NCBI RefSeq assembly: GCF_006345805.1
Contig: NC_043004.1
Coordinates: 92,690,001 to 92,754,000, forward strand
DNA: 64,000 bases
Reading direction: 5' to 3'
From: Octopus sinensis
Lineage: Eukaryota
Each line of letters opens with the position of its first letter. Position 1 is the stretch's first letter. The notes below the pieces were generated by a model that was not told the origin of the DNA, did no database searches, and worked only from the letters and a program-made list of their open reading frames with translations. Shown piece by piece: positions 1 to 56,297 of the stretch. The position numbers were made by a program, and so were the translations under genes.

Positions 1-84
1 CCCGGGGTCGATTTGATCGACTAAAGGCGGTGCTCCAGCATGGCCGCAGTCAAATGACTGAAACAAGTAAAAGAGTAAAAGAGT
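1..84 (+). mobile_element. 3' end of SINE group A (tRNA head + CORE-like domain)
   Basis: Matches the 3' end of full copies at 23806, 47330, 59060 (ctaaaggcggtgctccagcatggccgcagtcaaatgactgaaacaagtaaaagagta). Confidence 0.85.
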
Positions 85-496
85 ATATACACATTTACTG
101 TTTACCATTCTCAGCATGTATTCTACAGAATCCCTTGTCGATAGTGTATCACATCCAGCATACCCCCAAAATCCTCTACTACTCACACTCACCAACCATT
201 ACTGTAACACATAAACCATACCGACACTAGGCATACTCTACACATTGACACCTGTTAATGTAATACATAAAACAACCTATGCTGCACACACTCTACAATT
301 GAGGTTCCCAACCATTTTTTGCCTACAGACCCTTGATCCCTGCTTTACTTAGGTGGGCCCCTCGTAGCCATTCAATGAATTAAAAAAAGTCCTATCGTAT
401 TTTTATAATTAACTATTATTAAGAATTTATTTTTAAATTGTTTAAATATTTTGTTTATTGTAGAGAAGTATAACCAATTTATTGCATACAATCTAT

Positions 497-1432
497 CTAT
501 CTGTCTAGGTCGTACCTCAGACTGTTTCCACACGTTTTTTCCCATTCATCTCGATCTTCCATCAGGGTCCTTAACTCTTGTATCTCTTCCATACCAGTAT
601 TCTCCAGGAAGTTGTCGATATAGGTCGTCTTCTTCCTTCCTTTCCTGGTTCTTCGTTCCGTTGGTTGCCAGAGCACAAGCTTGTTAGCAATTTCATTGGT
701 GTGTCTGATGCACTGTCCACCTAGTCTCATCCTTCTATGCTGTATCTTCAATGTTACTTTAGGTAGTCCCTGGTATAAGTTGGCGTTTGTTGTATGACTC
801 TTCCGGGAGATATTCCATGTCATTCTAAGCATCCTCGCATAACAACCGTCCAACTGCTTCTTCAATGCTTTAGTGAGCGTCCAAGTTTCAGTCCCGTATA
901 GAACAGACTCCATTGTTGCCAGAAACAACCACACTTTCAATTTCCTAGCTAACTTTGAACTCCATACCTTTCTCAATTTATGGCATGCGCTCCAGGCAAG
1001 AGCTTTCCTTACTACGATGTCTTTTTCAGTACTTTGTGTCTACGCACCAAGGTATTTGAAATTTTCAACTACCTTGAGCACCTACCATCTCTCACTTTCA
1101 CTGAGACAGGGCTTTTGTGGTTGAATACTTGCAGCTCTGTTTTGTTTGCGTTACTTTACAATCCTACCTTCTCCGATTCATGCTCTAATCTACTGAGCAC
1201 CACCTGTACCTGATCTGTCCTCTTTGTTAGTACTGCCAGCTCATCAGCATAGTCTAGATCAGTTACTGTTACTGCTTGATGCCGTCTACTTCTTTGCCTA
1301 TGCAGTTTGAATCTCATTCTTCTGCCTTGCCCTCGTACGTTCTACGCATTACATAGTCCAGAACGGTGGCTAAGAGATAAGGTGTTAGCGTGCCGCTTTG
1401 TAATACTCCGGCTTTGACTTCAAAGTATTGCC
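497..1432 (-). mobile_element. Decayed RTE-clade LINE, RT and C-terminal part
   Basis: Minus-strand translation gives GVLQSGTLTPYL, DLDYADELA (YADD-like) and ESVLYGTETWTLT...LDGCYARMLR, with frameshifts. Confidence 0.85.
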
Positions 1433-3375
1433 TACAAATCTTAACGACAAAATCTTACATGGACTCCAAAGACCATATGGACCCCAGTTGAAGATCACTG
1501 CTCTGCACAAACACCACTCGGCTTCAAAAATATCTCACAAAACATACAAGATACAATCAATTCTCAACGAAATTACACAAATCACATTGCACGCAAACCT
1601 CTCGGCAAAAAAAAAACGAAACCCAAAAAACAAATATACCAAAACACAAGAAACATAAAAAAAACCCATAATGCAGCTAAACAGACGTAGTATACAAACA
1701 CAACTTTATGCCTTTAAAAGATAATGCTACATGTAAATCAACAACATGGGTATATGTTTGGTGATTCCATATAAACTCACACGAATCAGTTGACAAAAAA
1801 AATAGTAATAATTTATTCCGTAGACCTGACCAGAAATTTAGATGGGACAACAGTCGTTTGTAATGGCTCCAGAAGAATGAAAGGCAAAGTTGACTTCAGC
1901 AGGATTTGAACTCAGAACTTAAAGGACAGTAACTAAATACCACCAGGAACGGCGATTTCTTTATCACCACAAGGGTAACAAATGGAAAACAGGCATTAAA
2001 AATATATAGAAAACAAGCATTAAAAATAGCAACGACAAAACCATACAATATCTTGTCTTATTTTCAGTGATATAATGGCCCCCTTGATGTACGTACATGA
2101 ACAGCCAGCGTAAAAAATTTGGTAGCTCTTTGCCCAATGTAATGTAATCGCTAGATTCGAGAAGTTTGCAACATTTGCATATTACTTGTAGCTCAATAAT
2201 TCTGCAGCTTGTTGCCTTGTGGTTTGCTACTGGTGAGCAGCATTTTACTTTTCGTTTATTCATAATATATTATTAAAGGCAGAGTAAGATAGTTTGTGCT
2301 CTGTTTTTATGTCTTTTTTTATTATTTTGTTTCTCCTCTTTTGTTGTTGTTTTTTTAATTACGTATTCGTCTAATCTATAGACAGAATACATTTGATTTG
2401 TGTTTTAAGCTTAATATTATGAGTTTTTTTATTTCATTTTATAGACTGCTATGTCTGTTCAATGTATTGCATAAAATTTGTTATATAATATAGTCTATTA
2501 AATCATTTGAACATCCGTTATTAACTATTCAATTGTTTGTGCTATAATTTCATTGTATACTGTTGTCTCGAAGGAGAAAATCAAAAACTTCGCGGAGTAG
2601 AAATACCAGAACTGAAGTTTTTATATTTGTGTGAATATTTTTTTAAACTATATCTATATACACATTTGTTGTTTACCATTCCCTGTATGTATAAGCATTT
2701 ACTAAACTACTTAACTATTTACTGGTCTTATACGTGTCTTTCTTTTTATTATTCTTATATTTACACCTAAGTATGGGGTTGTTGAATCGCATCAGTGTTT
2801 ATCTAAATAATGTTACTGGAGAAGAAAGTTATTCTATCTAAACCTTCCTTAAATTTTTTCGACTTCTTTTTGTGCAGCCGTCACTACAAAAATATCTCCA
2901 AATTTGATGTAAATTGTGGGTTTGTATTTTTAATTGACGTTAACTTCTACATTGTCTGGCATGGGTATATGTTTACACAAATTCTGTATAGGTATATGTA
3001 TGTGTATATCTATATATGCATTTAAGTTTGTATGTTACGTATGCATGAATGTATGAATATAAATATATTTGTACAAATGTAGGTATGTAAGTATTTATGT
3101 GCATATATATATATATTTATATATAATAAACATGCATATATATCTATATACATACATATATAAGTGTGTGTGTGTGTGTGTGGTGTAAACGTTATACATG
3201 TGGCCATAAAGGGACAAGGAATTGAAGTTGTTTAAAGATAGAGGGACTGAAAGAGAAGCGGCAGAGGATACACGGAGATAGTAAAAAGAACAGCGTTAAA
3301 TCTATATTATGCAGTAAAAATGTTTAAAGTTTGTGTGTGTGTAGTTTTTATTGCAAGTGGAGCTAAGAAATTGTT

Positions 3376-3414
3376 TCGAGACTCCAGTTTCAAGTCATTG
3401 CGATCTTCAGGCGA
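3376..3414 (-). ncRNA. Degenerate Penelope-type minimal hammerhead motif
   Basis: Reverse complement reads tcgc-CTGAAGA-tcgcaatgactt-GAAA-ctggag-TC-tcga; stem II is damaged. Confidence 0.35.
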
Positions 3415-3599
3415 CAAGCTAATCGTTGTGGAGAGAAACTCGAGTCGCAAGACGAGATCTCGGTCTCAGATTTAATTTTAAAAAAACAATCTTCTACAAC
3501 TTGCATTGAACGTCATTAGCTCAAATGATCTAAACTTCTTTATAGTAAATTGATATATATATTATAATATAATATAATATAACATAAACACATACACAT

Positions 3600-4130
3600 A
3601 TACATAAATAGTTCTTTTTCTCTGTATGACTTCATATGTATTGCCTTCTACTCACAACACCAAATATCTAATATAGTACAAAACATTGATTCTTTGAAAA
3701 CGTTCAAAGTGAACATGTATGACATTAACACGCATAGTAATAAAATGAATAATACCAACTGAAACTGTACACACTCGAACAAGTGTTTTCTAAATGCTAA
3801 ATATTGATCATAACATCATATATCAGGGTGCTGTACAAACTAACACTTCTTACACACCGTATATTAACCCAAGCACTAATTAAAGGCTCGCTACATCCAA
3901 CACAACATTCTTTCCGTAACCCAACACGAAAAAAAAACGTTACAATGTTGTCAATTTACCTATCGCAACCTAAAGAAAAAAATATTCAATATGGAAGATC
4001 CTTGTGGAAGCCACACCGTATGAGAATAAAAGCAGATCCTGTATTTTGTACACAGAACAGGCAATGCAAACCTTCAACCAAAACTCTCAGAAAGTTATTG
4101 CATCCTGTACAAGATATATACAACGTATCT
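3600..4130 (+). mobile_element. Decayed Penelope-like element, C-terminal GIY-YIG endonuclease
   Basis: Frameshifted translation: *NC..NKCFLNAK, IIYQGAV...YIN, KARY..H.SFRN...LSIYLSQPKEKNIQY, WKILVEATPYENKSRSCIL. Confidence 0.65.
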
Positions 4131-4827
4131 GCATCACAAATCTATTTCGAATCCTTGTATCTTAGTGGATAGACTTGTGAACGTAGGGCAACTGCTGCTT
4201 CTTTACTAAGAAAACTCACTAGTTAACTTCAGCTTTCTCTGGATACGGCCAGGGGCATTAAGAAGCCCAATGTATGACGTAAACTATCGTTTTCTCTGAA
4301 CCCATTCTTCGGGCACAACTTATATCAACTCCACTACTGCTTGACTATATTTCCAATCATAAAATGCATCTCTGCAAATTTAATAAAGCCACAAGTACCT
4401 AGACTAATTTTTCTTCTGTTCCGTCTGATGCCGCATTATGCACACCTCTCGTTCTCCTCTAGTTACACTTACATTTTCTAGATAATACTCCCACCTCTCA
4501 TTGAACACTAAATCTCATAAATTTCTTCAATTAACTATTCGCCCTTAAAAGTGAGAATTACATAAGATCTTAATTCTTACCATAAACATCTTTTTTTCTT
4601 TTCTCTCTAAATAGGCTCTTGGAGGTCCTAACACCACCAAAGATAAAGGCTATTTGCACATCTAATAAAACAATATGTAACTTTTTATCGTATTTTCTAT
4701 CTATTATTTCATCACCGAATGTGGTTTCTGCCATTAATAATGCGATCTTTAAATATCTGTTTAAATATTTCTATGTTCTTAATTATCCATTACCATCTCT
4801 ATCATCATCATCATCGTCATCATCATC

Positions 4828-4863
<36 letters not shown>

Positions 4864-5333
4864 GCCATTATCATCACCACCATTTTTCATATTTAACGAG
4901 ATTTATTAAGATTTACATCATTACTTATATTATCAGCAACTTTATTACAAGAGTGTTTACTTTAATTATTATTATTATGAAAGAGGGTGGTGATTCGGCA
5001 GAATCGGGAGAGCATCTGAAAAAAAAAAAAAACGAAAATGCTTTGTGGTATTTGTTCCGGCTCTTTACGTTCTAAGTTCAAATCCAACCAAGGTCAACTT
5101 TGCTTTTCATCCCAGTAGGGTAGGTAAAATAAAATGCGGATTAAACTAACTAAATCCTTCCTCCAGAAATTTAGATCTTGTGCCTATATATTAAAAAGGA
5201 TTATATATTAAAAAGGATTATCATTTTTACTAATATTTTCATCATTAAGATTAAGAGTGACTCTATATGACCAATAGTAATGCTGTTTCTATCTTCAATA
5301 ATATTACAATTGCGATTAGTATACACATGTGCA

Positions 5334-5520
5334 AGGCGACGAACTGGCTGATTCGTTTACACACCAGGCAAAATGCGTAGCGATATTTCATTACTCTTAA
5401 CGTTCTGAGTTCAAATTCCGCCGAGGTCGACTTTGTCTTTTATCCTTTCGAGTCGATAAAATAAGTACCAGTTGAGTACTGGGGCCGATATAATCGACTA
5501 ACTCCATCCCCCAAAATTTT
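5334..5520 (+). mobile_element. SINE group C (Meta-domain-like)
   Basis: Contains gttctgagttcaaattccgccgaggtcgactttg...tcctttcg.gtcgataaa.taagtacca, shared with many other copies in the window. Confidence 0.75.
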
Positions 5521-5580
5521 ATATATGTATGTATTTCCAAAATAAACTAACATCAGTACCTCTAGAATTTGTCTGATCGT

Positions 5581-5630
<50 letters not shown>

Positions 5631-5879
5631 CTTGTATATAACAAACTCTTAAGATAATGGTGTTTCTTTGCATCGGCCAAATTGAAAGAAATTAGCAAAA
5701 TTGGCAAAATTAGTACAGTGAATTTGCCAAGAGGTGTGGAGACAGACACCTTCTTTAGACAAGCGTCGACTGAAGAGAAATCAGTGAAAGGCAAAAGAGA
5801 TTTACATCTTCCCTATATATGTATGCATGTCTATACAGTTATATATGTATATACATGTGTGTGTGTGCATATTTTTCTA

Positions 5880-6270
5880 TCGTCTCGGCCCTCACCGTAT
5901 GTTTTTACTGTTTTGTTCTCACTGTTCTGTTCTTTTTACTGTTTTGTTCTTGTTACCACTTTCACCCTCCGCAAAAAAATTCCAAATTTTATTTAATTTG
6001 CTTTGCGGGAAGGATTGTTTCAATGAAGTCGCGTCTTGTCCTTGCCTTCGAACGTGGAGTAGATGAAACAGGGACAACTGAAGAAGGGGAATATTCTTTA
6101 TGTTGTATATCTCTTTTCTCTGTTTGTTTATTTCGTTGTTCGAAAAAAGTTTGTTTCTATGTTTTTGTTTTCATGTTTTCGTTTCTCATTGTGTTCAACG
6201 TCTTTTTTATGTCCTGTACCCATATATGCATGTATATATACATATATATGTATGTATATATGCATATATT
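5880..6270 (+). repeat. Interspersed repeat, probably Penelope pLTR-derived
   Basis: Homologous to 40600-40990 (ccgcaaaaaa...ttgcggga hairpin, ggagtagatgaaacag...actgaagaagggg); a diverged copy may lie near 2560-2700. Confidence 0.6.
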
Positions 6271-6275
6271 TACAT

Positions 6276-6319
<44 letters not shown>

Positions 6320-6512
6320 TGTATGTATGTATTACATATATACAGTTTCGCTGGGAAAAGAATCAACATTCCCTGATGAAATGGTAGGGTTATGCAACAA
6401 TGAAAAATTACGTTACATCATGAAATATTATGCATTATTAAATAAATAACAATGCGTGCAGCAAAAACTTGAACAGCCCAATCTTGTTTTTGTATGTATG
6501 TATGTATGCATG

Positions 6513-6546
<34 letters not shown>

Positions 6547-7021
6547 TGTATGTATGTATGTATGTATGTATGTAGCTATCTATCTATCTATTTATAGTGT
6601 TTGAGATGTGACCCACGCATTGTTTGAGTTGATGTATGTTCATGCAACTGATTCTTAATACATTTATGAGTGTGTGGTTTCTTTAATTTCCCTACCACCA
6701 TAACAGAAATTTATAGCATTGTATCATAGTTACAATATAAAGGAATGATACTTCAACTAGTAGCTATCAACAAGGCTTGCAGTACCACATACTAACAACC
6801 TTCTAGTCATGAGCAAACTACTACCGTGGGACCTACTGAAAAGCACGCTTCATTTCACGAGGGGAAAAAATGTTTATTCAAATTTTATTCAATAGTTCAG
6901 CCCACCTGATGATGAGTCATATCTCGCAGCTTGCCTCTCGAAAATATTCAAGACAATTCTATGGACTATTATTACCAGATATGTAAGGAGGTAGTTATAT
7001 ATATATACGTGCCCAATATAT

Positions 7022-7220
7022 GTCTCAAATTTTGGCACAAGACCAGCAATTTAGTGGAAAGGGTAAGTCGGTTAAATCCGCCCCAGTCGTATTTTATTGA
7101 CCCCGAAAGGATGAAAAGCGAAGTCGACCCCGACGGCATGTGAACTCAGGACGTAAAGTCGGAAGAAATGCCACTAAGTATTCTGTCCGGCGCGGTAACG
7201 ACTGTGCCAGCTCGCCGCCT
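7022..7220 (-). mobile_element. SINE group C (Meta-domain-like)
   Basis: Reverse complement of the group C consensus including the head ggcggcgagctggca. Confidence 0.75.
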
Positions 7221-7487
7221 TATAAGTTCTACATATTAAGTTCTAACATAGCCAGAAGGCCTCAATTTTGGCGTTGAATATAATTGATTAGACTGAGCCC
7301 AGTTTTTGATTGTTTTTTTATCGACCTCGGAAGGATGAAAGATGACGTTGGCCTTGACAGTATACGAAATAAGAACATCAAGTCTCAAACATAAATAGTA
7401 CAAGGTATTTTGTCCTACATGTTATTGACTCGACAGTACATCACCTTGATATAAGCTTTACATATTAACCATTGTTGTTTGTTCTAG

Positions 7488-7636
7488 ACATTTCCATGGA
7501 CGATATTGTGAGTACCAGCTATTAAAGAGGAGTTGTGGTCCATTAAAACACGGCACTTGGTTACGCTATAAATGCGATCTTTGTTGGTGTTTCGACGGAA
7601 GATTTCGCTGTCTACAACATGTGTTCAGAGGCTGTG
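7488..7636 (+). CDS. EGF-CFC: EGF-CFC (Cripto/Cryptic/oep family) internal exon: end of EGF-like domain plus complete CFC domain
   Basis: Acceptor ttgtttgttctAG (7486-7487), donor G|GTATGT (7637); 149 nt, phases 2/1. Encodes HFHGRYCEYQLLKRSCGPLKHGTWLRYKCDLCWCFDGRFRCLQHVFRGC, aligning by eye to human Cripto SFYGRNCEHDVRKENCGSVPHDTWLPKKCSLCKCWHGQLRCFPQAFLPGC with all 7 Cys and the HxxW motif. Confidence 0.93.
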
Positions 7637-7650
7637 GTATGTAGTTAATC

Positions 7651-7700
<50 letters not shown>

Positions 7701-8307
7701 TTCTCTCTCTCTCTTCTCTCTCTCTCTCTCTCCCTCTCATTCTACCTAAACTCTAAATAAGGGCTGAGTGAGAAAATATCCAGAGTCGCCATCCACACGA
7801 AAAATAGCAACTAAATGAGAGTCAACATATTTAATGCAACGGGAAAAAGATTCTAATTGGTCATTAATACTTATCCAATGATCAAGTAGGGAGATGAGGT
7901 CTAAGGAGAGGAGGACACTGTGGCGGTGTTATAAAGCTAAAAGATTTCCGGAATTTTCCTCCATACATAACAGACTCAAATTGAATTAGCAATATTTGTT
8001 ATGCTAATGCTTTCTTCTCACAGGCATACGTCTAATGAATTAACTGGAGATTTTTCTTACGCTTCATTAAATATATAGCATTGAATTCATTGTAAAAGCC
8101 ATAAAGAAAAGCGTACTGTACACGCTAGTTTGAATGTCAGTAAACAGCTTCAAGAGAATGGAGTCTGAATTGAATTCCAATGAGTTCTCTTCTTTCATCA
8201 GTTTACTTATCATCCGTAAGGAATAGTATAGTTACTACAAAATCGTATGCAAAATGCTATGATATATTTGGATTCCATCTTGACACTGTCATTCTAGTAC
8301 CTTTATG

Positions 8308-8694
8308 AGGAGGCGCAATGGCCCAGTGGTTAGGGCAGCGGACTCGCGGTCATAGGATCGTGGTTTCGATTCCCAGACCGGACGTTGTGAGTGTTTATTG
8401 AGCGAAAACACCTAAAGCTCCACGAGGCTCCGGCAGGGGATGGTGGTGATCCCTGCTGTACTCTTTCACCATAACTTTCTCTCACTCTTACTTCCTGTTT
8501 CTGTTGTACCTGTATTTCAAAGGGCCGGCCTTGTCACTCTCTGTGTCACGCTGAATATCCCCGAGAACTACGTTAAGGGTGCACGTGTCTGTGGAGTGCT
8601 CAGCCACTTACACGTTAATTTCACGAGCAGGCTGTTCCGTTGATTCGGATCAACCGGAACCCTCATCGTCGTAACCGACGGAGTGCTTCCATCC
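8308..8694 (+). mobile_element. Full-length tRNA-derived SINE group B, tail type 1
   Basis: A-box tggcccagtgg and B-box-like ggtttcgattcc; near-identical copies at 30411, 56485, 60349, 62198; flanked by a 77-bp direct repeat. Confidence 0.9.
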
Positions 8695-8889
8695 AGTTAC
8701 TACAAAATCGTGTGCAAAATGCTATGATATATTTGGATTCCATCTTGACACTGTCATTCTAGTACCTTTATATTCTACATTGCTTCAATAGGTCTAGGTA
8801 ACATACATAAATAGGTAGAGAATTTATACCTATGATAGATTGGTATCCGATCCAGGTGTACCTATTACCTAAGTATCTCCAGTTAAAAT

Positions 8890-9085
8890 GCGTAGCCGTA
8901 TTTCGCCTGTCGTTACGTTCTGGGTTCAAATTCCGCCGAGGTCGACTTTGCCTTTCATCCATCCTTTCGGGGTCGATAAATTAAGTACCAGTTACGCACT
9001 GGGGTTGATGTAATCGACTTAATCCGTTTGTCTGTCCTTGTTTGTCCCCTCTGTGTTTAGCCCCTTGTGGGTAGTAAAGAAATAT
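8890..9085 (+). mobile_element. SINE group C, 5'-truncated
   Basis: Group C core with tail gccccttgtgggtagtaaagaaata; flanked by repeated tatctccagttaaaat (probable TSD). Confidence 0.85.
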
Positions 9086-10004
9086 ATCTCCAGTTAAAAT
9101 AATGTCATCACATTATCACAGTCTCTTTAGCTATCATAAAGAAGGATAGGAAGCATGCCATCATGTGAATATTATTTGTGCTGTAGACAGGTGCATTAAT
9201 CAAGATTTGTTTCTCTACGTCTCTGCTGCGTTCTTGTAATTAAAAAAAAAATTTATTCTATATTGTCGCCAAATGATACAACTTTCAGTAGAAATAACTA
9301 AAAGATCGACTGGAAATGTTCCCTCTGATAATTTAACGTCTTATCATCATTTTGTTTTTCCCCGAGACTTTCTGTGGTCAAGATGCTATAATGATTCTTT
9401 CTAATTTTCGCACAAGGCCAGCAATTTTAAGAGAACCCAACACTTAATAGCCACATTATTTTATCGAATCGAAAGGATGAAAGGTAATGCTGACCTCGGT
9501 AGGGTTTGAGCTCAGAGCGTAAAAAAACCGGAAGAATTGCTGCTAGGCGAGCTAGCAAAATCGTTAAAGCTTCGGAAAAAATACTTTTCAACATTCCCTC
9601 TAGCCCCTTACATTCTGGATTTGATTTCCACCGAGGTCAACTTTGCGTTTCATACTTTTAGAGTTGATATATTAAAGTACCAGTCAAGTACTGGAGTCGA
9701 TGTAATTGAAAAAACCCTCCCTCTAAAAGTTTTAAAGTATGCCATAATGATAACAATAATTTTTTCTAATTTTAGCACAATGCCAACTATTTTATAGGGA
9801 GGAGTTTGTCAATATCATCGATCCCGGTACTAGACTGGTACTTTGTTTCGTTACCCCCAGAGGAATGAAGAGCCAAATTGGCTTTGACGATATTTAACTT
9901 TGTCTTTCATTCTTCCTGGGCCGATAAAAAAAAAAGTCCAATTGAACAACATTACATATTTACTTTATATATGAATGCTTGAGCCAACCAGTAAACCACT
10001 ACAT

Positions 10005-10205
10005 GATCACTCTACCTGCTAGAATTAGTAGCCAAATTAACCCTCAAAATACACCCTATAGTTTTATAAAAAGAAAGTATACATTAGATAGGTCCTTATA
10101 TTCCATCTTTGTAAACAAGACATGAGATGTTCAGAGCTGAAATTCCTTTGATCATAGGTACATTCAACCAGTACTGACCTGAGTTAAAATAACATCAACA
10201 ACAAC
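10005..10205 (+). repeat. Older interspersed repeat (group D) ending in (CAA)n
   Basis: acctgctagaa.tag..gccaaa...cctcaaa...cctttgatcataggt...ctgacct; related copies near 10378(-), 20190(+), 21230(-), 36490(-), 52420(+). Confidence 0.6.
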
Positions 10206-10778
10206 AACGGCAGATAAGTGTTCGATGTTTGTCCCTGAATACAAAACGAAATCTTCAATGACTTCAGTTTAAAGACCATTTCATATGATTAGATTTTTAT
10301 ATATCCTTGTAATTGCGTGGGTTGTTCAGTTATTACTAAGGAAGTGGTTTTACCGTGTGTATTACACAAATAGTTATTATTTAAGCCCAGGTCAATCCCT
10401 GATCAAACAAACTCAGGGTCGAAGATATTCCAACGAATACCATTCTGCCTTTTTATTCAGATTTGACATTCCTCTTTTACAACAATCATATAAGTGGCAT
10501 GTAGAGTACCTGTTGCTATTTCTTGCAATTCGAGAGACTACGCAGGAAAACTGAACTTAGCTCTGCAAGCTAACAAACAGCTAATTAGTTCTACAGTGTT
10601 ACTACTTCTTCTTACAATGTGGTACCTATTTAGAGCTATACGAACTGAGCCATTTGAAGGTTAGTGTTTTTATATTTAGATACGCGTATATTATGTACAT
10701 TTATGCGTATATATATGTGTGTGTATGTGTGTGTGTGTGCGTGTGTGTGTGTATTTATGCATATAAATATATATACGC

Positions 10779-10863
<85 letters not shown>

Positions 10864-10919
10864 ATATATACATACATATATATATATATACATATATATA
10901 CATATATACATATTTATAT

Positions 10920-10960
<41 letters not shown>

Positions 10961-10968
<8 letters not shown>

Positions 10969-11259
10969 AGTGAATTGAAGAAATAGAGTTGAACGAAGAT
11001 TGAACAGAAATCGTTTTATTGCATTCTACACGTGTTTCGAAAGCCACAATTTACCAAATTCCGAAATACTCACATACCGCAATCAACCTTCCCACTGGTC
11101 AAAAGCTAAACATCTATTAATGCTATATTAATCCTCCCAGGAATATGGACTGTGATCTTAATTTGGTAAATTGTGGCTTTCGAAACACGTGTAGAATGCA
11201 ATAAAACGATTTCTGTTCAATCTTCGTTCAACTCCATTTCTTCAATTCACTAATAATAT
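10961..11259. repeat. 100-bp near-perfect inverted repeat with 99-bp spacer
   Basis: 10961-11060 is the reverse complement of 11160-11259 with about one mismatch; each arm holds the hammerhead half GAAACACGTGTAG followed by AATAAA. Confidence 0.9.
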
Positions 11260-11407
11260 TAAAATTCAATTATCCGCACCAACGCACGGTTGCAACACCA
11301 TATGGTTGTACCTCCAACCGTGCTTTCTTCTGCTGTGATTTTTGCTACCAAGGTATCGGTTAAACTTTTGATTAATCTGCAACAAGATTATTCATCTTTC
11401 TATTTCA

Positions 11408-11453
<46 letters not shown>

Positions 11454-11580
11454 ATATATACATCTTTTTAATTTGTTTACGGGAAACGTTTTGAATATGC
11501 AAATAAAGCTCCTATTCCTTCCATTAAGCCGGTTATAGCCTAAAGATGTTGACTGATGAAACCGATGTGATTTAGGATAG

Positions 11581-12028
11581 ATATAGTAATAATAACAATA
11601 ATCTGAAACTTATAAATACTTTAATGTATCGCTACGCGCATTTCCACAAATCTCATGCCTCTCAAGATCTTAGTCCGTATTCCTGCGACGATTAAGTGTC
11701 GTCCGTAATATCCATGGGCATCGGGTAGATCATCGTCATGGATTCATTTTTTCAGGCAATAGAACATTAATGGATGTTTAACTGAGAGTATTTATCACTT
11801 TTGACTGATTGAAGTATGTGGATATTTCACCAAATACACACAGAAATACTCACATACCGCAATCAACCTTCCCACTGGTCAAAAGCTAAACATCTATTAA
11901 TGCTATATTAATCCTCCCAGGAATATGGACTGTGATCTTAAGAGACATGAGATTTGTGGAAACGCGCATAATGATGCATTAAAATGTTTATAAATTTCAT
12001 CCAAGGATTATTGTTATTATAACTATAT
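11581..12028. repeat. Diverged inverted repeat overlapping an exact copy of the 11063-11161 spacer
   Basis: 11581-11696 resembles the reverse complement of 11907-12028; 11843-11941 is identical to 11063-11161. Confidence 0.8.
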
Positions 12029-12029
12029 A

Positions 12030-12907
12030 CAGGGTGCGGTGAATAAATTATCGTCAAAATTACGCAAAAATGAAAATAACACTAACATCTCATTTTAACA
12101 AATATATTTACCAAAATTACATAAAAAATATATTGAAATACTAAAGAGTAAATTTATTCAATAAAATCGCCGTTAACTTCAACCACTGCCTCCAAACGAC
12201 TTCGGTATCTCCTCCAACTCTTCAGGACGGTCTCCTAGTTTAAGTTGGTCAATGCTGCCATAATCCTTGCCTCCAGTTCATCTTTGGTGTTACAAGGAGT
12301 TTTGTTGGTCTCTCGCTCAACTGAGTCCCACATATAATAATCAAGGGGGTTGCAGTCTGCGGAAGTTAGCTGGCCAGATGTTTGGGGTGATATGGTCGTA
12401 GAAATTGTCTGACAGCCATGGCTGAGTTCTCCTGCTTGTGTGACATGGTGCAGAGTTCTGTTGCCAGACACAGAGTCTTCCAGCAGTCACCCACTTGACC
12501 CAGGACAGCACTACCTTCTCCAAGCACTTGATGTAGGCTTCCGTGTTGAGTCTAAGGCTGTGTGGGAAGATGGATGGAGGCATAACGTCGCCATCACTAG
12601 TGATCACGCCAAACACCATGATGATGACTGGGTGTTTGATTTTTATTGCTCTCGGTACATGTCATCAGATTGACGCCCAAACATTCTGAAATGTTCATAT
12701 TGGAACTTCCGGCGCGAATGCAATGCAGTACAGTATATCGCTTCTAAATTTCTGATAGAGTGAATTGTGCATGATGCAGTTTTTCTCACAGACAGTACCC
12801 AACTGACCCTACTATACCGTGTAGTCTACAAAATCAAAAACAAACAATGCGCAAACGCGAAATTAAAAATATAAAATGGCGACAATTTACCCATCACACG
12901 CTCTTTG
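12030..12907 (-). mobile_element. Internally deleted DD37D (maT-like) Tc1/mariner transposon
   Basis: WQQNSAPCHT...WPAN/SADCNPLDYYMW across a frameshift, 37 residues by hand count; degenerate TIRs and TA flanks. Confidence 0.85.
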
Positions 12908-13192
12908 TATGTGTGTGTGTGTGTGTGTGTGTGTTTGTATGTATGTATATGTGTATGTATACATGTATGTATGTACGTATGTATATATATGTGTGTGTGT
13001 AAGTATATGTACATATATACATATGTATATACACATACATATATATCCTTATATACATTCATACATATATATATATGTATATATACGCATGTATATACAC
13101 ATACATATATATCCATATATACATATGTAAGTATTTATGTATGCATGTATGTATAGGTTGCCGACATTCTAGTTGCTGTTGTATCATTGCAG

Positions 13193-13389
13193 GTGTCCCC
13201 TGGTCTAAACCTGACCTTCCTCTTACCTACGATTCACTCGATCCCAGAGAAGACATTCAGATTTATCCACTCACGCCCTCCGACCAAGTCCATATCACGG
13301 CAGCCAACACTTCTTCCAGATTTTCTATGGCCACCCTCGTCACATTTACTGCAACGGTCCTCCTCCGTGTTATCTATGATTTAAGTTGA
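13193..13389 (+). CDS. EGF-CFC: Probable terminal exon of the EGF-CFC gene (linker + GPI-anchor-like signal)
   Basis: Acceptor ttgtatcattgcAG (13191-13192), phase 1 matching the donor at 7637. Reads (G)VPWSKPDLPLTYDSLDPREDIQIYPLTPSDQVHITAANTSSRFSMATLVTFTATVLLRVIYDLS*: small-residue cluster then hydrophobic tail. Confidence 0.72.
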
Positions 13390-13619: not shown

Positions 13620-13765
13620 ACTAACATTATTCATATTATTTACATTTGTTAGATATTTGTCCTCATCTTGTTTGTTGTTAACACAACGTTTCGGCTGATA
13701 TATCCTCCAGCCTCCATCAGGTGTCTTGAGGAAATTTCGAACCTGGGTTCTCATTCCTAAGGTAT
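13620..13765 (-). mobile_element. Hammerhead-bearing Penelope pLTR-like repeat, copy 1 (motif 13680-13725)
   Basis: gacac-CTGATGg-a-GGCTG-gaggatatat-CAGCC-GAAA-CGTT-gtgtt; inverted homolog at 15050-15232. Confidence 0.75.
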
Positions 13766-13779
13766 ACCTCTACGCCTTA

Positions 13780-13845
<66 letters not shown>

Positions 13846-13847
13846 CA

Positions 13848-14993
13848 ACAATCAGCCACTTCTTATATATTGATGACCTAAAACTATACGCTGCAAATGA
13901 GAAACAGCTGGAAACACTACTAAAGACAGTTCATGGATTTACCAAAGAAATAGATATGAAATTTGGCTTAGAAAAATGTGCCAGAGTAACCTTGAAGAGA
14001 GGAAAACTAGTTAAGAGTAGCAACATCACATTAGATATAGCCAATGAAATAAGAGAATTAGAGCAAAGCCAGACATACAAATATTTAGGAATCAATGAAC
14101 TAGATACGATACAACACACACAAATGAAAGAGAAAATAAAGAAATACTATAGACGAGTTAAATCAATACTGAAAACAAAGCTCTATGCTAAAAACAAGAT
14201 AATAGGTATTAATACTCTAGCCGTCCCAGTTCTTCATGGCAAATACTGGGTTAAACTAAATGCAAAAGAAATAGACAGAGAAAATCCCAGCAATGCTTGA
14301 GAAGCTCAAGACTAAAAGCAGAGGCTGAAGGATTTTTAATTGCTGCACAAGACCAAAGCCACCCCACCAGAAATTACCAAAAACACATAATGAAAAGAAA
14401 CATAACAAGTAACTGCAGAATATGTGGAGATGGACAAGAAACAATAAATCATATTATCTCTGGCTGCCTAGTCCTGCATAAGAAGGTATTTATTCACAGA
14501 CACGACAGACTTGGGACCTACATACAGTGGAAGCTATGCCAACACTATGGAATAACAACAGAAAAAAGATGGTATAAGCACACGCCAGAAAAGGTCACAG
14601 AAAACGAGAAAGCAACCATACTCTAGATATGCCTATACACACAGATAGAGAAATTAAGGCCAATTGGCCAGATATAGTTGTCAGAGATCATGAAGAATAA
14701 ATGCTTTCTAATTGATGACAACGTTTCTCTAATAGAAATGGATAAACTTTCAAAATACAAAGACCTGGAAATAGAGGTAACTCGAATGTGAAATCTAAAA
14801 ACAGGAACAATTCCTATCACAGTGGGCGCATTAGGTATGATAAAATTTGCCTTACTGGGCGCTGCACACGTCCTACGCAAAGCACTTTCAATATAGTAAT
14901 TATAAGAGCATCACAGCAAACCACAGTACATACCCAAGGCACACAGAGCTGCGCTCGGTAGTGAAGTGAAAGCACGCAATAAAAATAAATCTA

Positions 14994-36724: not shown

Positions 36725-37195
36725 TAAAAACATTGTGTACAGTGCTCAGGTGCACTACAACTCATCTAAAGTGTATGTATAATCAGGTGTAGTCTCGGCG
36801 GATTTCGGAAAGCATGAGGGCCTTAAAGGATGCAGTGTCAACAACTGATGCAGGCAGTTTGTTCCATGCTTCAGCAACTCTGAGCGTGAAAAAATGTTTC
36901 CGAAAGTCATGGGAGCTGTGCTGTTTTCTGACTTTGTAGGCATGTCCACGTGTGTTAGACACATGGAGATCAAAAAGGTGTTCAGTGTTGTTGTTGGTGA
37001 GGTGGTTGATAACTTTGTGGGTGTTTACTAAGTCCATCGCCAGACGCCGGAGCTTCAGTGAATCCATGCCCAGGGAAACAAGGTGCTCAGAGTATGGTAG
37101 GTGTCTGATGGAGGGTATGCATTTGGTTGCACGTCTCTGAACAGATTCCAGGAGGTCAATGTTCTGAGCAAGATAGGGGTTCCAAACTGAACAAG
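36725..37195 (-). mobile_element. CR1-clade LINE 3' end
   Basis: VWNPYL..IDLLESVQRRATK...LRRL..DL...TRGH..K...RKHFFTLRVAEAWNKLP. Confidence 0.9.
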
Positions 37196-37239
37196 TAAAG
37201 TGCAACATGTCTAAAGACCATTCTTCAACAGCTCCATAG

Positions 37240-37655
37240 TAGTAATGGTAGGTAGTCCATCGATGTCTGATGACGGCAATGAAGTCTGTGTTCTCAGCGA
37301 TGAGAGTGCATGTGACTTCGCACCCCAAAGCTGGAAGCACACAGGCGCCTACAGATGTCACAGCGATGGTCTGTTGACTGGATTGAGGTGGATGCTGCTC
37401 AGTGACGTCTTTCTCTTGCAGCATCGGGACGTTGTCACCGGTCCTCTTTGAAGGCAGCTGCTGATCGTGAGGTGAGAGATTTCCACGTTGATCTGTCTGT
37501 AGCAGAAGCTTCGAGTTCGCGTGTCTAATGCCGCTCCATTTGAGGTTACTTTTCAGAGTCTCTTTGTACTTCAGTTTACATCTTCCTCGTTTGTGTGGGC
37601 CCTGTGTGAGCCCACCGCACAACAGCTCTCCGGGTACATGGTCGTCAATCATTTA
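37240..37655 (-). mobile_element. RTE (BovB-like) LINE 3' end
   Basis: PGELLCGGL..G...RGR.KLKYKETLKSNLK and a terminal CxxC...SH finger in a shifted frame. Confidence 0.75.
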
Positions 37656-38897: not shown

Positions 38898-39650
38898 ACA
38901 AGGTGGTATCCAAAAGTTCTCAGACTAGTTCTGTATCGCGTCAACAGATCAGGAAGATCCGCCACGAGCATCACACCCGAAAATGTGGAGAAAATTGGTC
39001 AGCTTGTGCATCAGCATCGGAGGAGGATAATCAACGACATTGTTGATATTGTTGGTCTGTCGTATTGGTCTGTGCAGGCAATCCTAACGTCTGAATTGAA
39101 CATGCGACGTGTCTCTGTCAAGTTTGTCCCCTGCTTGCTGACCACTGAGCAGAAAGGACCATCGCATCAAAGTCTGTCAAGATTTCCGTCAGCGTGCCGC
39201 TGATGACCCATCCTTCATGTCGAGGATCATCACTGGTGACCGGAGATGGATCTACGGGTACGACCCTGAGACGAAGCAGCAGTCATCACAATGGAAGAGC
39301 CCTTCCTCTCCACTACCGAAGAAGGCTCGACAGAGCCGCAGCTCAATCAAGAGCATGCTCATCGTCTTTTTCGACATTCACGGTTTTGTACGTCGAGAAT
39401 TCCCTTCCCCGGCGTCAGACCGTCAATCGAGAGTTCTACTGCGACGTTTTGAAACGTTTGAGAGAGGACATTCAGCGAAAGCCACCAGATTTGTGGAGTA
39501 CGAAGAATTGGATTCTTCACAAGATACTCTGTCACCGATATCTCCTCACATGGTATCGCTTTGGCACCTCACCCCTATTCGTCAGATTTAGCACCTGCAG
39601 ATTTCCATCTCTTCCCCTAGATGAAAACGCAACTGCCGTTTTAACACCGT
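38898..39650 (+). mobile_element. Decayed mariner transposase with deletions
   Basis: RSGR...KFVPCLLT, RIITGDRRWIYGYDPETKQQSSQW, SDLAPADFHLFP. Confidence 0.9.
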
Positions 39651-40280
39651 TGTTGTTTATTTATTGCCCTGACTATAACTTTAAACTACATCTGGTTGTG
39701 TGTTCCTTGTACGGGAATTCAGGTTTTTGAGGAGTGTGGACCCACGTCTGAATCACTTTTGTTTCTAGGTCTACTCTGACCCCATATTAGTGACACCTGT
39801 CAGGTTCCCACCTCACCTATGGGTTAATTAGCATGTGAACCACTGGGGTCGAAGAACCCTTAGTTCTCGTTAGAAATTCCTTCTTGAAGGTGAGCTAAAA
39901 AGAAACAAACACCCGGTGGTGGTTTCTGGTCATCTCAACCTCCGCTGTGCCACACGTTTTTATAGCTGATTTCGCTGAAAAAGTGGGTTGAGTGTTGTGC
40001 AACACTTTATCCATTCAATACAAATTCAGGCAGAGGAACTTCTTGGACTCTCTCAGCCTTACTGAGTTTAGAAGGTGGTCTCATTCAAAAATTACTTATT
40101 TCACTCTTTGGGACTGCTGGCATGCTGGGGCACCGCCTCGAGGAGTTTAGTCAAACAAATCAGTACGCTTGTTTACGGGGACATAAACAAACCAACGCCG
40201 CTTATCAAGTGGGATGGCAAGCAAACACAAACAAAAAGACACGAGCACATAAATATATTTATGTGTGTGTGTGCGTGCGC

Positions 40281-54566: not shown

Positions 54567-55132
54567 ATCATCATCATCATCATCATCATCATCGTTTAAC
54601 GTCCGTTCTCCATGCTAGCATGGGTTGGATGGTTCGACCGGGGATCTGGGAAGCCAGAAGGCTGCACCAGGCTCCGGGCTTATCTGGCAATGTTTCTACA
54701 GCTGGATGTCCTTCGTAACGCCAACCACTCCGTGAGTGTAGTGGGTGCTTCTTACGTGCCACCTGCACTGGAGCTAGGGGAGGCTGGCATCGGCCACGGT
54801 CGGATTGGTGCATTTTACGTGCCACCTGCACGGAAGCCAGTCGAGGCGGCACTGGCTTCGGCCACGATTCAGATGGTGCTTTTTACGTGCCACCGACACG
54901 GAAGCCAGTCGAGGCGGCACTGGCTTCGGCCACGATTCAGATGGTGCTTTTTACGTGCCACCGACACAGAAGCCAGTCGAGGCGGCACTGGCTTCGGCCA
55001 CGATTCAGATGGTGCTTTTTACGTGCCACCGACACGGAAGCCAGTCGAGGCGGCACTGGCTTCGGCCACGATTCAGATGGTGCTTTTTACGTGCCACCGA
55101 CACGGAAGCCAGTCGAGGTGGCGCTGGCATCG
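54567..55132 (-). mobile_element. RTE 3'-UTR-derived segment with 68-bp tandem expansion
   Basis: Reverse complement of the UTR at 55975-56297; 68-bp units start at 54807, 54875, 54943, 55011, 55079. Confidence 0.85.
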
Positions 55133-55155
55133 CATATATATATATATATATATAA

Positions 55156-56297
55156 CTGATAATATAGCTTTCATGTGCGGCAGATGCTCAGGGACAATAG
55201 ACACCACAGATACTCAGAAAACAGATTCCATCACACTCCAGGGGGAGAAACTAGTAGTAGTTGATAGTTTCCGCTACCTGGGTGACCAAGTTAGTAGTGG
55301 AGGTGGATGCTCAGAGAGTGTCGGCACTAGAATACGAATAGCCTGGGCAAAGTTTAGAAAGCTCCTACCCCTACTGGCGACAAAGGGTCTCTTGCTCAGA
55401 GAGAAAGGTAGATTCTATGATGCATGTGTGCGAACTGCCATGCTTCACGGTAGTAAAACATGGGCCGTGACTGCAGAGGACATGCGTAGACTTGAAAGAA
55501 ATGAAGCTAGCATGATCCGCTGGATGTGTAATGTCAGTGTGCGTGCACGACAGAGTGTAAGCACCCTGAGAGAAATGCTGGACATAAGAAGCATCAGATG
55601 TGGTGGCGAGAGTGACGCTTGCGATGGTATGGTCATGTACTGCGGATGGATGAAGAGAGATGTGTGAAGAAGTGCCGCAGTTGAAGGTATCAGGGGGAGA
55701 GGTAGACCCAGAAAGACATGGGATGAGGTAGTCAAGCATGACCTCAGAGCGTTAGGCCTCACAGAGGCAATGGCGAAGGACCGAGATCTCTGGAGATATG
55801 CTGTGACTGCAAAGACCCGGGCTGCTTCCTGCACTAGTTCCACATAGACCCTGCCCATTCAAAGTACTTTGGATTCCAGAACATCCCGCTGTGCTTGAGG
55901 AGACCTATTGAGTCAAGTACATGAACATGAACATCGAAATAAATATCAATGGAAATAGTAGCTGTGATACTTGTGCCGGTGGCATATAAAAATCACCATC
56001 TGAACGTGGCCGATGCCAGCGCTGCCTTGACTGGCTTCCGTGCCGGTGGCACGTTAAAAGCGCCAACTGATCGTGGCCGATTCCAGACTCCCCTGGCACC
56101 TGTGCCGGTGACACGTAAAAAGCACCCACTACACTCGCGGAGTGGTTGGTGTTAGGAAGGGCATCCAGCTGTAGAAACACTGCCAGATCAGACTGGAGCC
56201 TGGTGCAGCCCCTGGCTTCCCAGACCCCAGTAGAACCGTCCAACCCGTGCTAGCATGGAAAACGGACGCTAAACGATGATGATGATGATGATGACGA
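55156..56297 (+). mobile_element. 5'-truncated RTE-clade LINE with 3' UTR and (GAT)n tail
   Basis: VVDSFRYLGD...RIRIAWAKF...YDACVRTAMLHGSKTW...RGRPRKTW; UTR-only copies at 57583-57768 and 62683-62873. Confidence 0.9.

Follow-up and report, generated by a model that had tools for sequence, protein, structure and literature searches.

An intact octopus EGF-CFC gene, a candidate Nodal co-receptor, carries threonine at the site of human Cripto T88

Does a cephalopod possess an EGF-CFC protein of the kind that bridges Nodal to its receptor in vertebrates? The model published in 2023 (PMC9907556) holds that the Nodal link of EGF-CFC arose in deuterostomes by one amino-acid change to Thr at the site of human Cripto T88, which is needed for Nodal signalling, that Thr at this site is limited to chordates and asterozoans, and that spiralian Nodal works without a co-receptor. 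Its spiralian sample is eight sequences, none of them from a cephalopod or a bivalve. The window analysed here, a stretch of 64,000 nucleotides of Octopus sinensis DNA, contains a CFC-encoding exon, from which a preliminary description had proposed a hidden gene for an apparently intact Nodal co-receptor in a mollusc. A literature search found no study of the Nodal pathway in a cephalopod.

A five-exon EGF-CFC gene

The window exons 7488-7636 and 13193-13389 are confirmed as coding exons 4 and 5, the final pair of an intact five-exon EGF-CFC (Cripto/Cryptic/oep) gene, and its standing as an intact orthologue of this family is close to certain. All features lie on the + strand. Upstream of the window are the start codon exon (G000:C8:92650632-92650654), the exon encoding the putative signal peptide (G000:C8:92669640-92669695) and, about 19 kb away, the exon encoding C1-C5 of the EGF motif (G000:C8:92670628-92670706), which a six-frame motif scan did not find inside the window itself. 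Intron 3, 26,781 nt in full length, enters the window with its 3' part (1..7487) and is followed by the 149-nt coding exon 4 (7488..7636, phase 2 to phase 1), which encodes C60, ending the EGF motif, and the entire CFC domain (C69-C102, with His74 and Trp77). Beyond the GT-AG, simple-repeat-rich intron 4 (7637..13192, 5,556 nt), the terminal coding exon 5 (13193..13389, 197 nt including TGA) encodes a linker with a DP motif that other molluscs also have, an N141-T-S sequon and a hydrophobic C-terminus. Neither Rfam nor tRNA scanning gave a match in the window.

The preliminary description of exon 4 was accurate in its length, canonical splice sites, cysteine spacing and KHGTW motif, and in the proposed in-phase splice to exon 5. 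The exon is preceded by TTCTAG and followed by GTATGT, exon 5 is preceded by TTGCAG, and the 7636/13193 junction is in phase 1 across the whole intron. Among 21 in-phase candidate acceptors between 7640 and 30000, only that at 13193 is followed by a DP-type motif, as defined in this analysis from spiralian orthologues. The junction is supported by its splice signals, by the reading frame and by gene models in three species. When the five exons (23+56+79+149+197 nt, all GT-AG) are joined, their translation is identical to P0003, a 167 aa product matching an annotated Octopus protein. The gene is therefore not hidden, as had been claimed, because models of it exist in three Octopus species, although their products (P0001-P0003, the annotated Octopus proteins including the joined peptide) are labelled hypothetical or uncharacterized. 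Genome G000 yields one CFC match, and the gene is apparently single-copy.

Family membership is evident at several levels. Exon 4 encodes HFHGRYCE followed by a CFC domain of spacing C-x12-C-x2-C-x-C-x6-C-x7-C with KHGTW, and this cysteine/His/Trp pattern has a single occurrence in the window against 0 in 100 shuffles. The exon matches Pfam CFC (PF09443) at 35.2 bits (E=1.1e-8) and the whole protein at 30.8 bits, above the cut-off of 23.2, and the CFC structure of mouse Cripto (2j5h) is matched at E=1e-6. Directly before the CFC domain is a truncated EGF motif (Cys 36, 37, 43, 49, 51 and 60, with adjacent C1-C2), 22 of whose 26 positions equal the chordate-like consensus. PF09443 is carried by 7/7 matches of the homologue search, the top three atlas clusters are CFC, and octopus falls among the EGF-CFC rows in both trees. 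A fold search with an AlphaFold2 model (mean pLDDT 73.9) gave zero PDB matches at E<=0.001, its best rows being EGF domains and uninformative. The N-terminus has a hydrophobic stretch at 10-24 (mean hydropathy 2.0) with a predicted helix, and the C-terminus has small residues at 139-144 and then a hydrophobic stretch at 149-163 (mean 1.8); the predicted product is secreted and held at the cell surface by a GPI anchor.

The threonine site

The residues critical in human Cripto, G87/T88/F94 and H120/W123 (PMC9907556), are all kept in octopus as Gly41, Thr42, Phe48, His74 and Trp77, Thr42 (codon ACG at 92670672, in the EGF exon) being the human T88 site. The preliminary argument for a co-receptor drew on the CFC His/Trp pair, which is common to most orthologues. 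Its claims of family, intactness and cephalopod source stand, borne out by the Pfam match, the three-species models and the five-exon translation, but the co-receptor role is not derivable from family membership, as the snail Crepidula shows: in the one functional study of a snail, its EGF-CFC is reported to be expressed symmetrically and to have no left-right role, and the wild-type protein did not rescue zebrafish oep, while the single change L56T let it do so (PMC9907556). Our recount of the published rescue gives 4/39 versus 21/97, a small comparison (Fisher p=0.15). Because the octopus EGF exon carries the Thr that the snail lacks, the co-receptor reading is more plausible than the evidence first offered had made it.

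Octopus is not the only bearer of Thr at the T88 site outside deuterostomes, an idea that was dropped, as Thr is also present in Dreissena XP_052242552.1 and in the mollusc-like P0144, L033, L034-L037 and P0125. The state of the site is therefore not deuterostome-specific, and the claimed distribution (PMC9907556) is wrong whatever the function of the octopus protein. Among the matches listed (150 of 426, from a profile that included three octopus rows), Thr occupies the site in 4 of 34 non-chordate rows (I 11, L 11, T 4, R 4, V 2, K 1, M 1) versus 112 of 117 chordate-like rows, with entropies of 2.3 and 0.3 bits, respectively. Dreissena paralogues differ here (T/K), as do Haliotis species (V/L), and given such variation the Thr could be a neutral state. 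With the Thr column omitted, the octopus EGF motif is still the most chordate-like of the 34 non-chordate rows listed (82.6 versus 75.1 bits), in a ranking that is biased both by the three octopus rows in the profile and by the cut of the list at 150 of 426 matches.

On a hand-drawn species tree, parsimony prefers Ile as the root state in 4/4 taxon sets, each time by one step; when generic EGF repeats serve as outgroup (Thr in 59/63 repeats of four non-family matches), Thr and Ile tie. With the site masked during tree building, 8 changes between Thr and other states are required. The trees were not used to root the site because they are little resolved (17/51 and 5/42 inner branches starred) and place echinoids among spiralians. 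An ancestral Thr, which parsimony does not favour, was dropped as a main claim; the site is labile, and parsimony favours, by one step, ancestral Ile.

Between P0003 and the O. bimaculoides protein P0002, 0 of 69 core residues (35-103) differ versus 11 of 98 elsewhere (Fisher p=0.003). With 93-99% identity among the proteins of the three Octopus species, constancy of Thr among them has little power. None of the searches yielded an orthologue from squid, cuttlefish or Nautilus, a result too insensitive to be read as loss, and the last homologue search added three sequences only, all echinoid or echinoid-like.

A possible Nodal co-receptor and its alternatives

By sequence, the same genome encodes a Nodal (L012) and an ALK4/5/7-class receptor (L032), each assigned by best PDB match from a single exon. 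The best match of L012 is a Nodal/BMP2 chimera (121 bits versus 101 for the next). It has Leu at the 102 position (counted from the terminal CGC) and not the Lys-x-Asp motif of co-receptor-independent Activin (PMC340941), and it has Gln, not His, at position 104; its central loop/helix differs from the Nodal segment of 4n1d (MDLN for EEFH, AML for AYI). L032 ends in ADNK and best matches TGF-beta receptor I; a search for the ALK4/5/7 loop pattern gave no match, the L032 exon ending within the loop motif. No match was found to a Pitx-type homeodomain end pattern, which is not evidence of absence.

We consider it likely, at a probability of roughly 0.55, that the intact, predicted GPI-anchored octopus protein bridges Nodal to an ALK4/5/7-class receptor, like vertebrate Cripto. 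By analogy with vertebrates, the part of the EGF motif that surrounds Thr42 (a C2-x4-T-C3 O-fucose site) would engage Nodal at its type I receptor site, the CFC His/Trp pair would contact the type I receptor itself, and Smad2/3 would be activated once a type II receptor has joined the complex; the bridge model, EGF-Nodal binding and Cripto-ALK4 binding are described for the vertebrate system (PMC11751877). Biochemical competence for Nodal is somewhat better than an even prospect, and use of the protein as Nodal co-receptor in the octopus embryo is plausible but less likely than not. That the Thr-dependent co-receptor works, and that Nodal and EGF-CFC were partners outside deuterostomes too, either from the bilaterian ancestor on, with relaxation in most spirally cleaving lineages, or again in cephalopods after a regain, is a tentative and rather doubtful extension.

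The most serious rival, which has a substantial minority claim, is that this is an ordinary spiralian EGF-CFC acting independently of Nodal, in gastrulation, axis formation and perhaps MAPK input, as proposed for Crepidula, where the role is symmetric and Nodal-independent (PMC9907556). Thr42 would then have arisen by chance where constraint is relaxed, a single substitution away from Ile, Met, Arg or Lys, a view that agrees with the seven residues found there in the 34 non-chordate rows listed, the 8 changes on the masked tree and the one-step preference for Ile. Against it stand the chordate-like remainder of the EGF motif, in that biased ranking, the core invariant between Octopus species, and the tie at the root with the generic outgroup. 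Improbable is a protein that, bound to the type I receptor, does not promote Nodal but acts on different TGF-beta ligands, such as an activin/BMP-class antagonist: signalling by Activin, TGF-beta1 and BMP-4 is inhibited by Cripto in vertebrates (PMC11751877) and 15 TGF-beta domain matches, several divergent, occur in the genome, but nothing specific favours this and it leaves the Nodal-type residues unexplained. Vertebrate contamination or horizontal transfer, hinted at by sixteen EGF residues invariant between octopus and six vertebrate matches (found by shared words) and by one tree placing octopus beside chordates with weak support (81/58), is, like a pseudogene or annotation artefact, very improbable and largely refuted already, since the gene lies on long contigs in three species with large GT-AG introns, has an open frame and conserved core, is not rejected as monophyletic with molluscs (AU p=0.46), and shares with spiralians the position of intron 3, which interrupts the EGF motif in phase 2, two codons past C5, at exactly the same point in 4/4 spiralian-type loci printed (L033, L034, L036, L040), whereas 2/2 vertebrate-type loci (L038, L039) read through it.

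The octopus gene makes the published Thr model (PMC9907556) directly testable, as the natural reciprocal of the L56T experiment. If the protein is Nodal-competent, the timing of the origin of the Nodal co-receptor is reopened and a handle gained on cephalopod axis patterning; if it is not, Thr is not sufficient and the model is corrected as well. On the doubtful extension above, cephalopods, which lost spiral cleavage, would rely on a vertebrate-like Nodal receptor complex for axis patterning.

Comparison with known EGF-CFC systems

With vertebrate Cripto/TDGF1, Cryptic/CFC1, zebrafish Oep and Xenopus XCR the octopus protein shares a putative signal peptide, a truncated EGF motif with CCxNGGTC, a CFC domain with HxxW, a hydrophobic C-terminus and the five critical residues, and its best named matches are Cryptic-like proteins (E about 1e-14). 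It differs in its very short N-domain (the whole is 167 aa), in Leu52 where most have Pro, and in an intron inside the EGF motif, the vertebrate intron lying between EGF and CFC. That intron position and the post-CFC linker motif are common to octopus and the orthologous spiralian family (Crepidula, Lottia, Patella, Biomphalaria, Haliotis, Mytilus, Magallana, Argopecten, Solemya, Mactra, Capitella and Lingula), whose named members have Leu, Arg, Val or Ile at the T88 site in place of the octopus Thr. The Thr-bearing mollusc and mollusc-like sequences (Dreissena, P0144, L033-L037 and P0125) are separate lineages; XP_052242552.1 carries Thr where its Dreissena paralogue has Lys, and their EGF motifs are less chordate-like than that of octopus, P0125 being the closest and L033-L037 lying outside the scoring.

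The EGF-CFC gene and its protein

The exon at 7488-7636 (+ strand, 149 nt, acceptor TTCTAG, donor GTATGT) lies where the preliminary description placed it and encodes HFHGRYCE followed by a six-cysteine domain with the claimed spacing 12-2-1-6-7 and the motif KHGTW. The HMM check proposed there gives a match to Pfam CFC (35.2 bits, E=1.1e-8, cut-off 23.2), and the window contains a single instance of the CFC pattern, against none in 100 triplet shuffles. The suggested in-phase splice to a terminal exon at 13193-13389 (+) also holds: the phase-1 join leaves 64 open codons up to TGA, encoding a hydrophobic C-terminal tail, and acceptor 13193 is the sole one of 21 candidate in-phase acceptors (7640-30000) with a DP-type linker motif, as defined from a spiralian alignment. 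The same contig carries three further coding exons, all upstream of the window (C8:92650632-92650654, C8:92669640-92669695 and C8:92670628-92670706), making five of 23+56+79+149+197 = 504 nt, all GT-AG, with introns of 18,985, 932, 26,781 and 5,556 nt in order; their translation is exactly the annotated O. sinensis protein P0003 (XP_036361489.1). The product of 7488-7636 is 100% identical to a segment of the annotated Octopus protein P0001, whose four-member cluster (O. vulgaris CAI9727186.1, O. bimaculoides XP_014773847.1 and a 53-aa fragment, and P0003) is labelled hypothetical, uncharacterized or EGF/EB-domain protein. This is a real EGF-CFC gene and a new member of a family already known, spiralians included; it had been called hidden, which is wrong, as public annotation already contains the gene model. 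The O. sinensis genome holds at least one CFC match (150 of 160 candidates scored).

Between P0003 and its O. bimaculoides counterpart P0002 none of 69 core residues differ, against 11 of 98 others (Fisher p=0.003), a sign in these sequences of purifying selection on the core. An AlphaFold2 model (30-row alignment) has pLDDT 80-88 at residues 41-100 and helices at both termini, and a signal peptide and GPI signal are predicted from hydropathy alone.

A reverse-transcriptase fragment (13761-14300, +, Pfam RVT_1 E=8e-8) begins about 370 nt past the stop codon and contains the first AATAAA 3' of it, at 14135. Four degenerate frames in the window are mobile-element-like (497-1039 and 36783-37652, both -; 54600-55667 and 39149-39730, both +), three resembling LINE remnants by eye without a Pfam match and one giving a weak transposase match (E=0.007).

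Critical residues and the spread of the Thr

The available text of PMC9907556 names five residues as critical, G87, T88 and F94 (EGF motif) with H120 and W123 (CFC domain); the octopus protein has G41, T42, F48, H74 and W77. Thr42 (codon ACG, C8:92670672) falls within the O-fucose consensus C2-x4-(S/T)-C3, and in mammals the Thr itself, not its fucose, is reported to matter (PMC11964751, accessible part). In the portions of PMC9907556 covered, Thr is reported from no animals other than chordates and certain echinoderms; gastropods have Leu/Arg, annelids Met/Ile and a brachiopod Val. The eight spiralian sequences sampled include no cephalopod or bivalve, cephalopod terms occur nowhere in these portions or those of the preprint, and the conclusion drawn there is that the Nodal link originated in deuterostomes.

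Searching 1.84 billion representatives with a profile yielded 426 matches at E<=0.001, the best 150 of them being listed; these and the other rows collected, most of them unnamed, were sorted by sequence and by names (20 look-ups), and four multi-EGF non-family matches and three rows without the full motif were left out of the count. Among the matches listed, with octopus counted once, Thr occupies the site in 112 of 117 chordate-like rows versus 4 of 34 non-chordate rows, the others of the latter having I (11), L (11), R (4), V (2), K (1) and M (1). The non-chordate rows with Thr are Octopus, Dreissena polymorpha XP_052242552.1, P0125 and P0144, the last clustering with Biomphalaria (support 100/100); a Dreissena paralogue, XP_052256465.1, has Lys. 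Scanning metagenomes with the site left as a wildcard found eight loci. Five of these, all with Thr, are closest to Mactra-like rows (L033, and L034-L037 counted as one source); of the remaining three, a spiralian-type locus has Leu and two vertebrate-type loci have Thr. Because Octopus, Dreissena and mollusc-like rows and loci carry it, the Thr is, on the sequences compared, not restricted to deuterostomes, and a natural protostome variant contradicts the distribution underlying the published evolutionary model (PMC9907556, as far as available).

The site is labile: when it is masked during tree building, the tree has eight changes between Thr and non-Thr, and Haliotis varies between V and L within the genus. 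On a hand-drawn species tree, parsimony prefers Ile as the root state by a single step; Ile ties with Thr when generic EGF repeats (Thr in 59/63, from the four non-family matches) serve as outgroup. These data do not discriminate between an ancestral Thr and its repeated gain. Among the 34 listed non-chordate rows, octopus has the EGF motif most similar to that of chordates, Thr column in or out, in a ranking biased by a search profile that contained three octopus rows.

All four echinoid and echinoid-like proteins (P0137, P0180, P0181, P0182) are without C1, C3 and Thr. In EGF motifs C1 pairs with C3; if this applies here, a whole disulfide would have been lost in a heavily Nodal-dependent group. 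Ile or Met replaces Thr in 5 of the 117 chordate-like rows (P0063, P0094, P0115, P0130, P0140), possibly divergent vertebrate paralogues. The P0112 cluster of Patella caerulea comprises six or more EGF-CFC proteins, nearly identical and with adjoining locus tags, which suggests a tandem array.

Nodal, a candidate receptor and the proposed co-receptor function

The TGF-beta domain has 15 matches in the O. sinensis genome (G000). L012, within a 314-codon open frame, scores 121 bits against the Nodal/BMP2 chimera 4n1d (next entry 101), and L032, an exon of a type I receptor kinase with ADNK at its end, has TGF-beta receptor I as best match; both labels are from best matches, not trees. Counted from the terminal CGC, the octopus Nodal has Leu102 and Gln104; in the accessible part of PMC340941, Met/Leu102 and His104 mark the ligands that depend on a co-receptor, and Activin has Lys102-x-Asp104. 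By this count the octopus ligand is half a match to the co-receptor-dependent pattern, Leu102 fitting and Gln104 not, and its central loop and helix depart from those of the 4n1d Nodal segment. One Pitx pattern had no match.

Two inverted exon copies with identical translation, L014 and L015 (G000:C23:27324471 and 27365963, 41 kb apart), which we take to be BMP5-8-like, are either a recent duplication or an assembly artefact. L016-L019, L022 and L024, on unplaced-size contigs, are divergent TGF-beta family ligands, and L025 and L028 (G000:C10) are receptor-ectodomain-like exons with 175 kb between them, L028 presumably resembling BAMBI.

The genes for EGF-CFC and its partners, and the critical residues, are present in octopus. 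The model and SPR data given in the available part of PMC11751877 suggest, by analogy, that the anchored protein would hold Nodal via its EGF motif in the region of T42, with H74/W77 recruiting the type I receptor, and from this analogy we infer secretion, anchoring, binding and signalling. We put the probability that the octopus protein is Nodal-competent at roughly 0.55. That it works independently of Nodal is a possible, less favoured reading. Three points speak against Nodal competence, namely how labile the Thr site is, the results from the snail, and the modest size of the published oep rescue: the Crepidula protein is without a left-right role and rescued zebrafish oep only after L56T (PMC9907556, in the text available), and in our recount of that rescue mutants were 4/39 versus 21/97, with p=0.02 against Mendelian 25%, p=0.11 if partial rescues are scored as mutants and p=0.15 versus the wild-type construct.

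Descent and comparison with other EGF-CFC genes

A vertebrate contaminant is rejected because octopus intron 3 (phase 2, second codon past C5) has the position seen in 4/4 spiralian-type loci printed and in neither of the two vertebrate-type loci, which read through there, and this is better evidence than the trees, the first placing octopus beside chordates with weak support (81/58) and the second on the non-chordate side, where mollusc monophyly, which also counts against contamination, is not rejected (AU p=0.46).

The literature searched, mostly at listing level and with few subscription journals, yielded no publication dealing with EGF-CFC of cephalopods or bivalves, and none on the Thr outside deuterostomes. 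The accessible part of PMC7535936 (Heger et al.) describes an EGF-CFC orthogroup with three lophotrochozoan members, which may include an octopus sequence, since an O. vulgaris transcriptome was among the inputs. Cephalopods have lost spiral cleavage (PMC5104510, part available), and the parts covered of PMC6378612 and PMC4564238 contain nothing on cephalopod Nodal.

The octopus protein would be a reciprocal reagent for the zebrafish oep assay described in the available text of PMC9907556. The two vertebrate-type loci carry their intron after the EGF motif, whereas the octopus intron lies inside it, and at the Thr site, where Crepidula EGF-CFC has Leu (L56), the octopus protein has T42.
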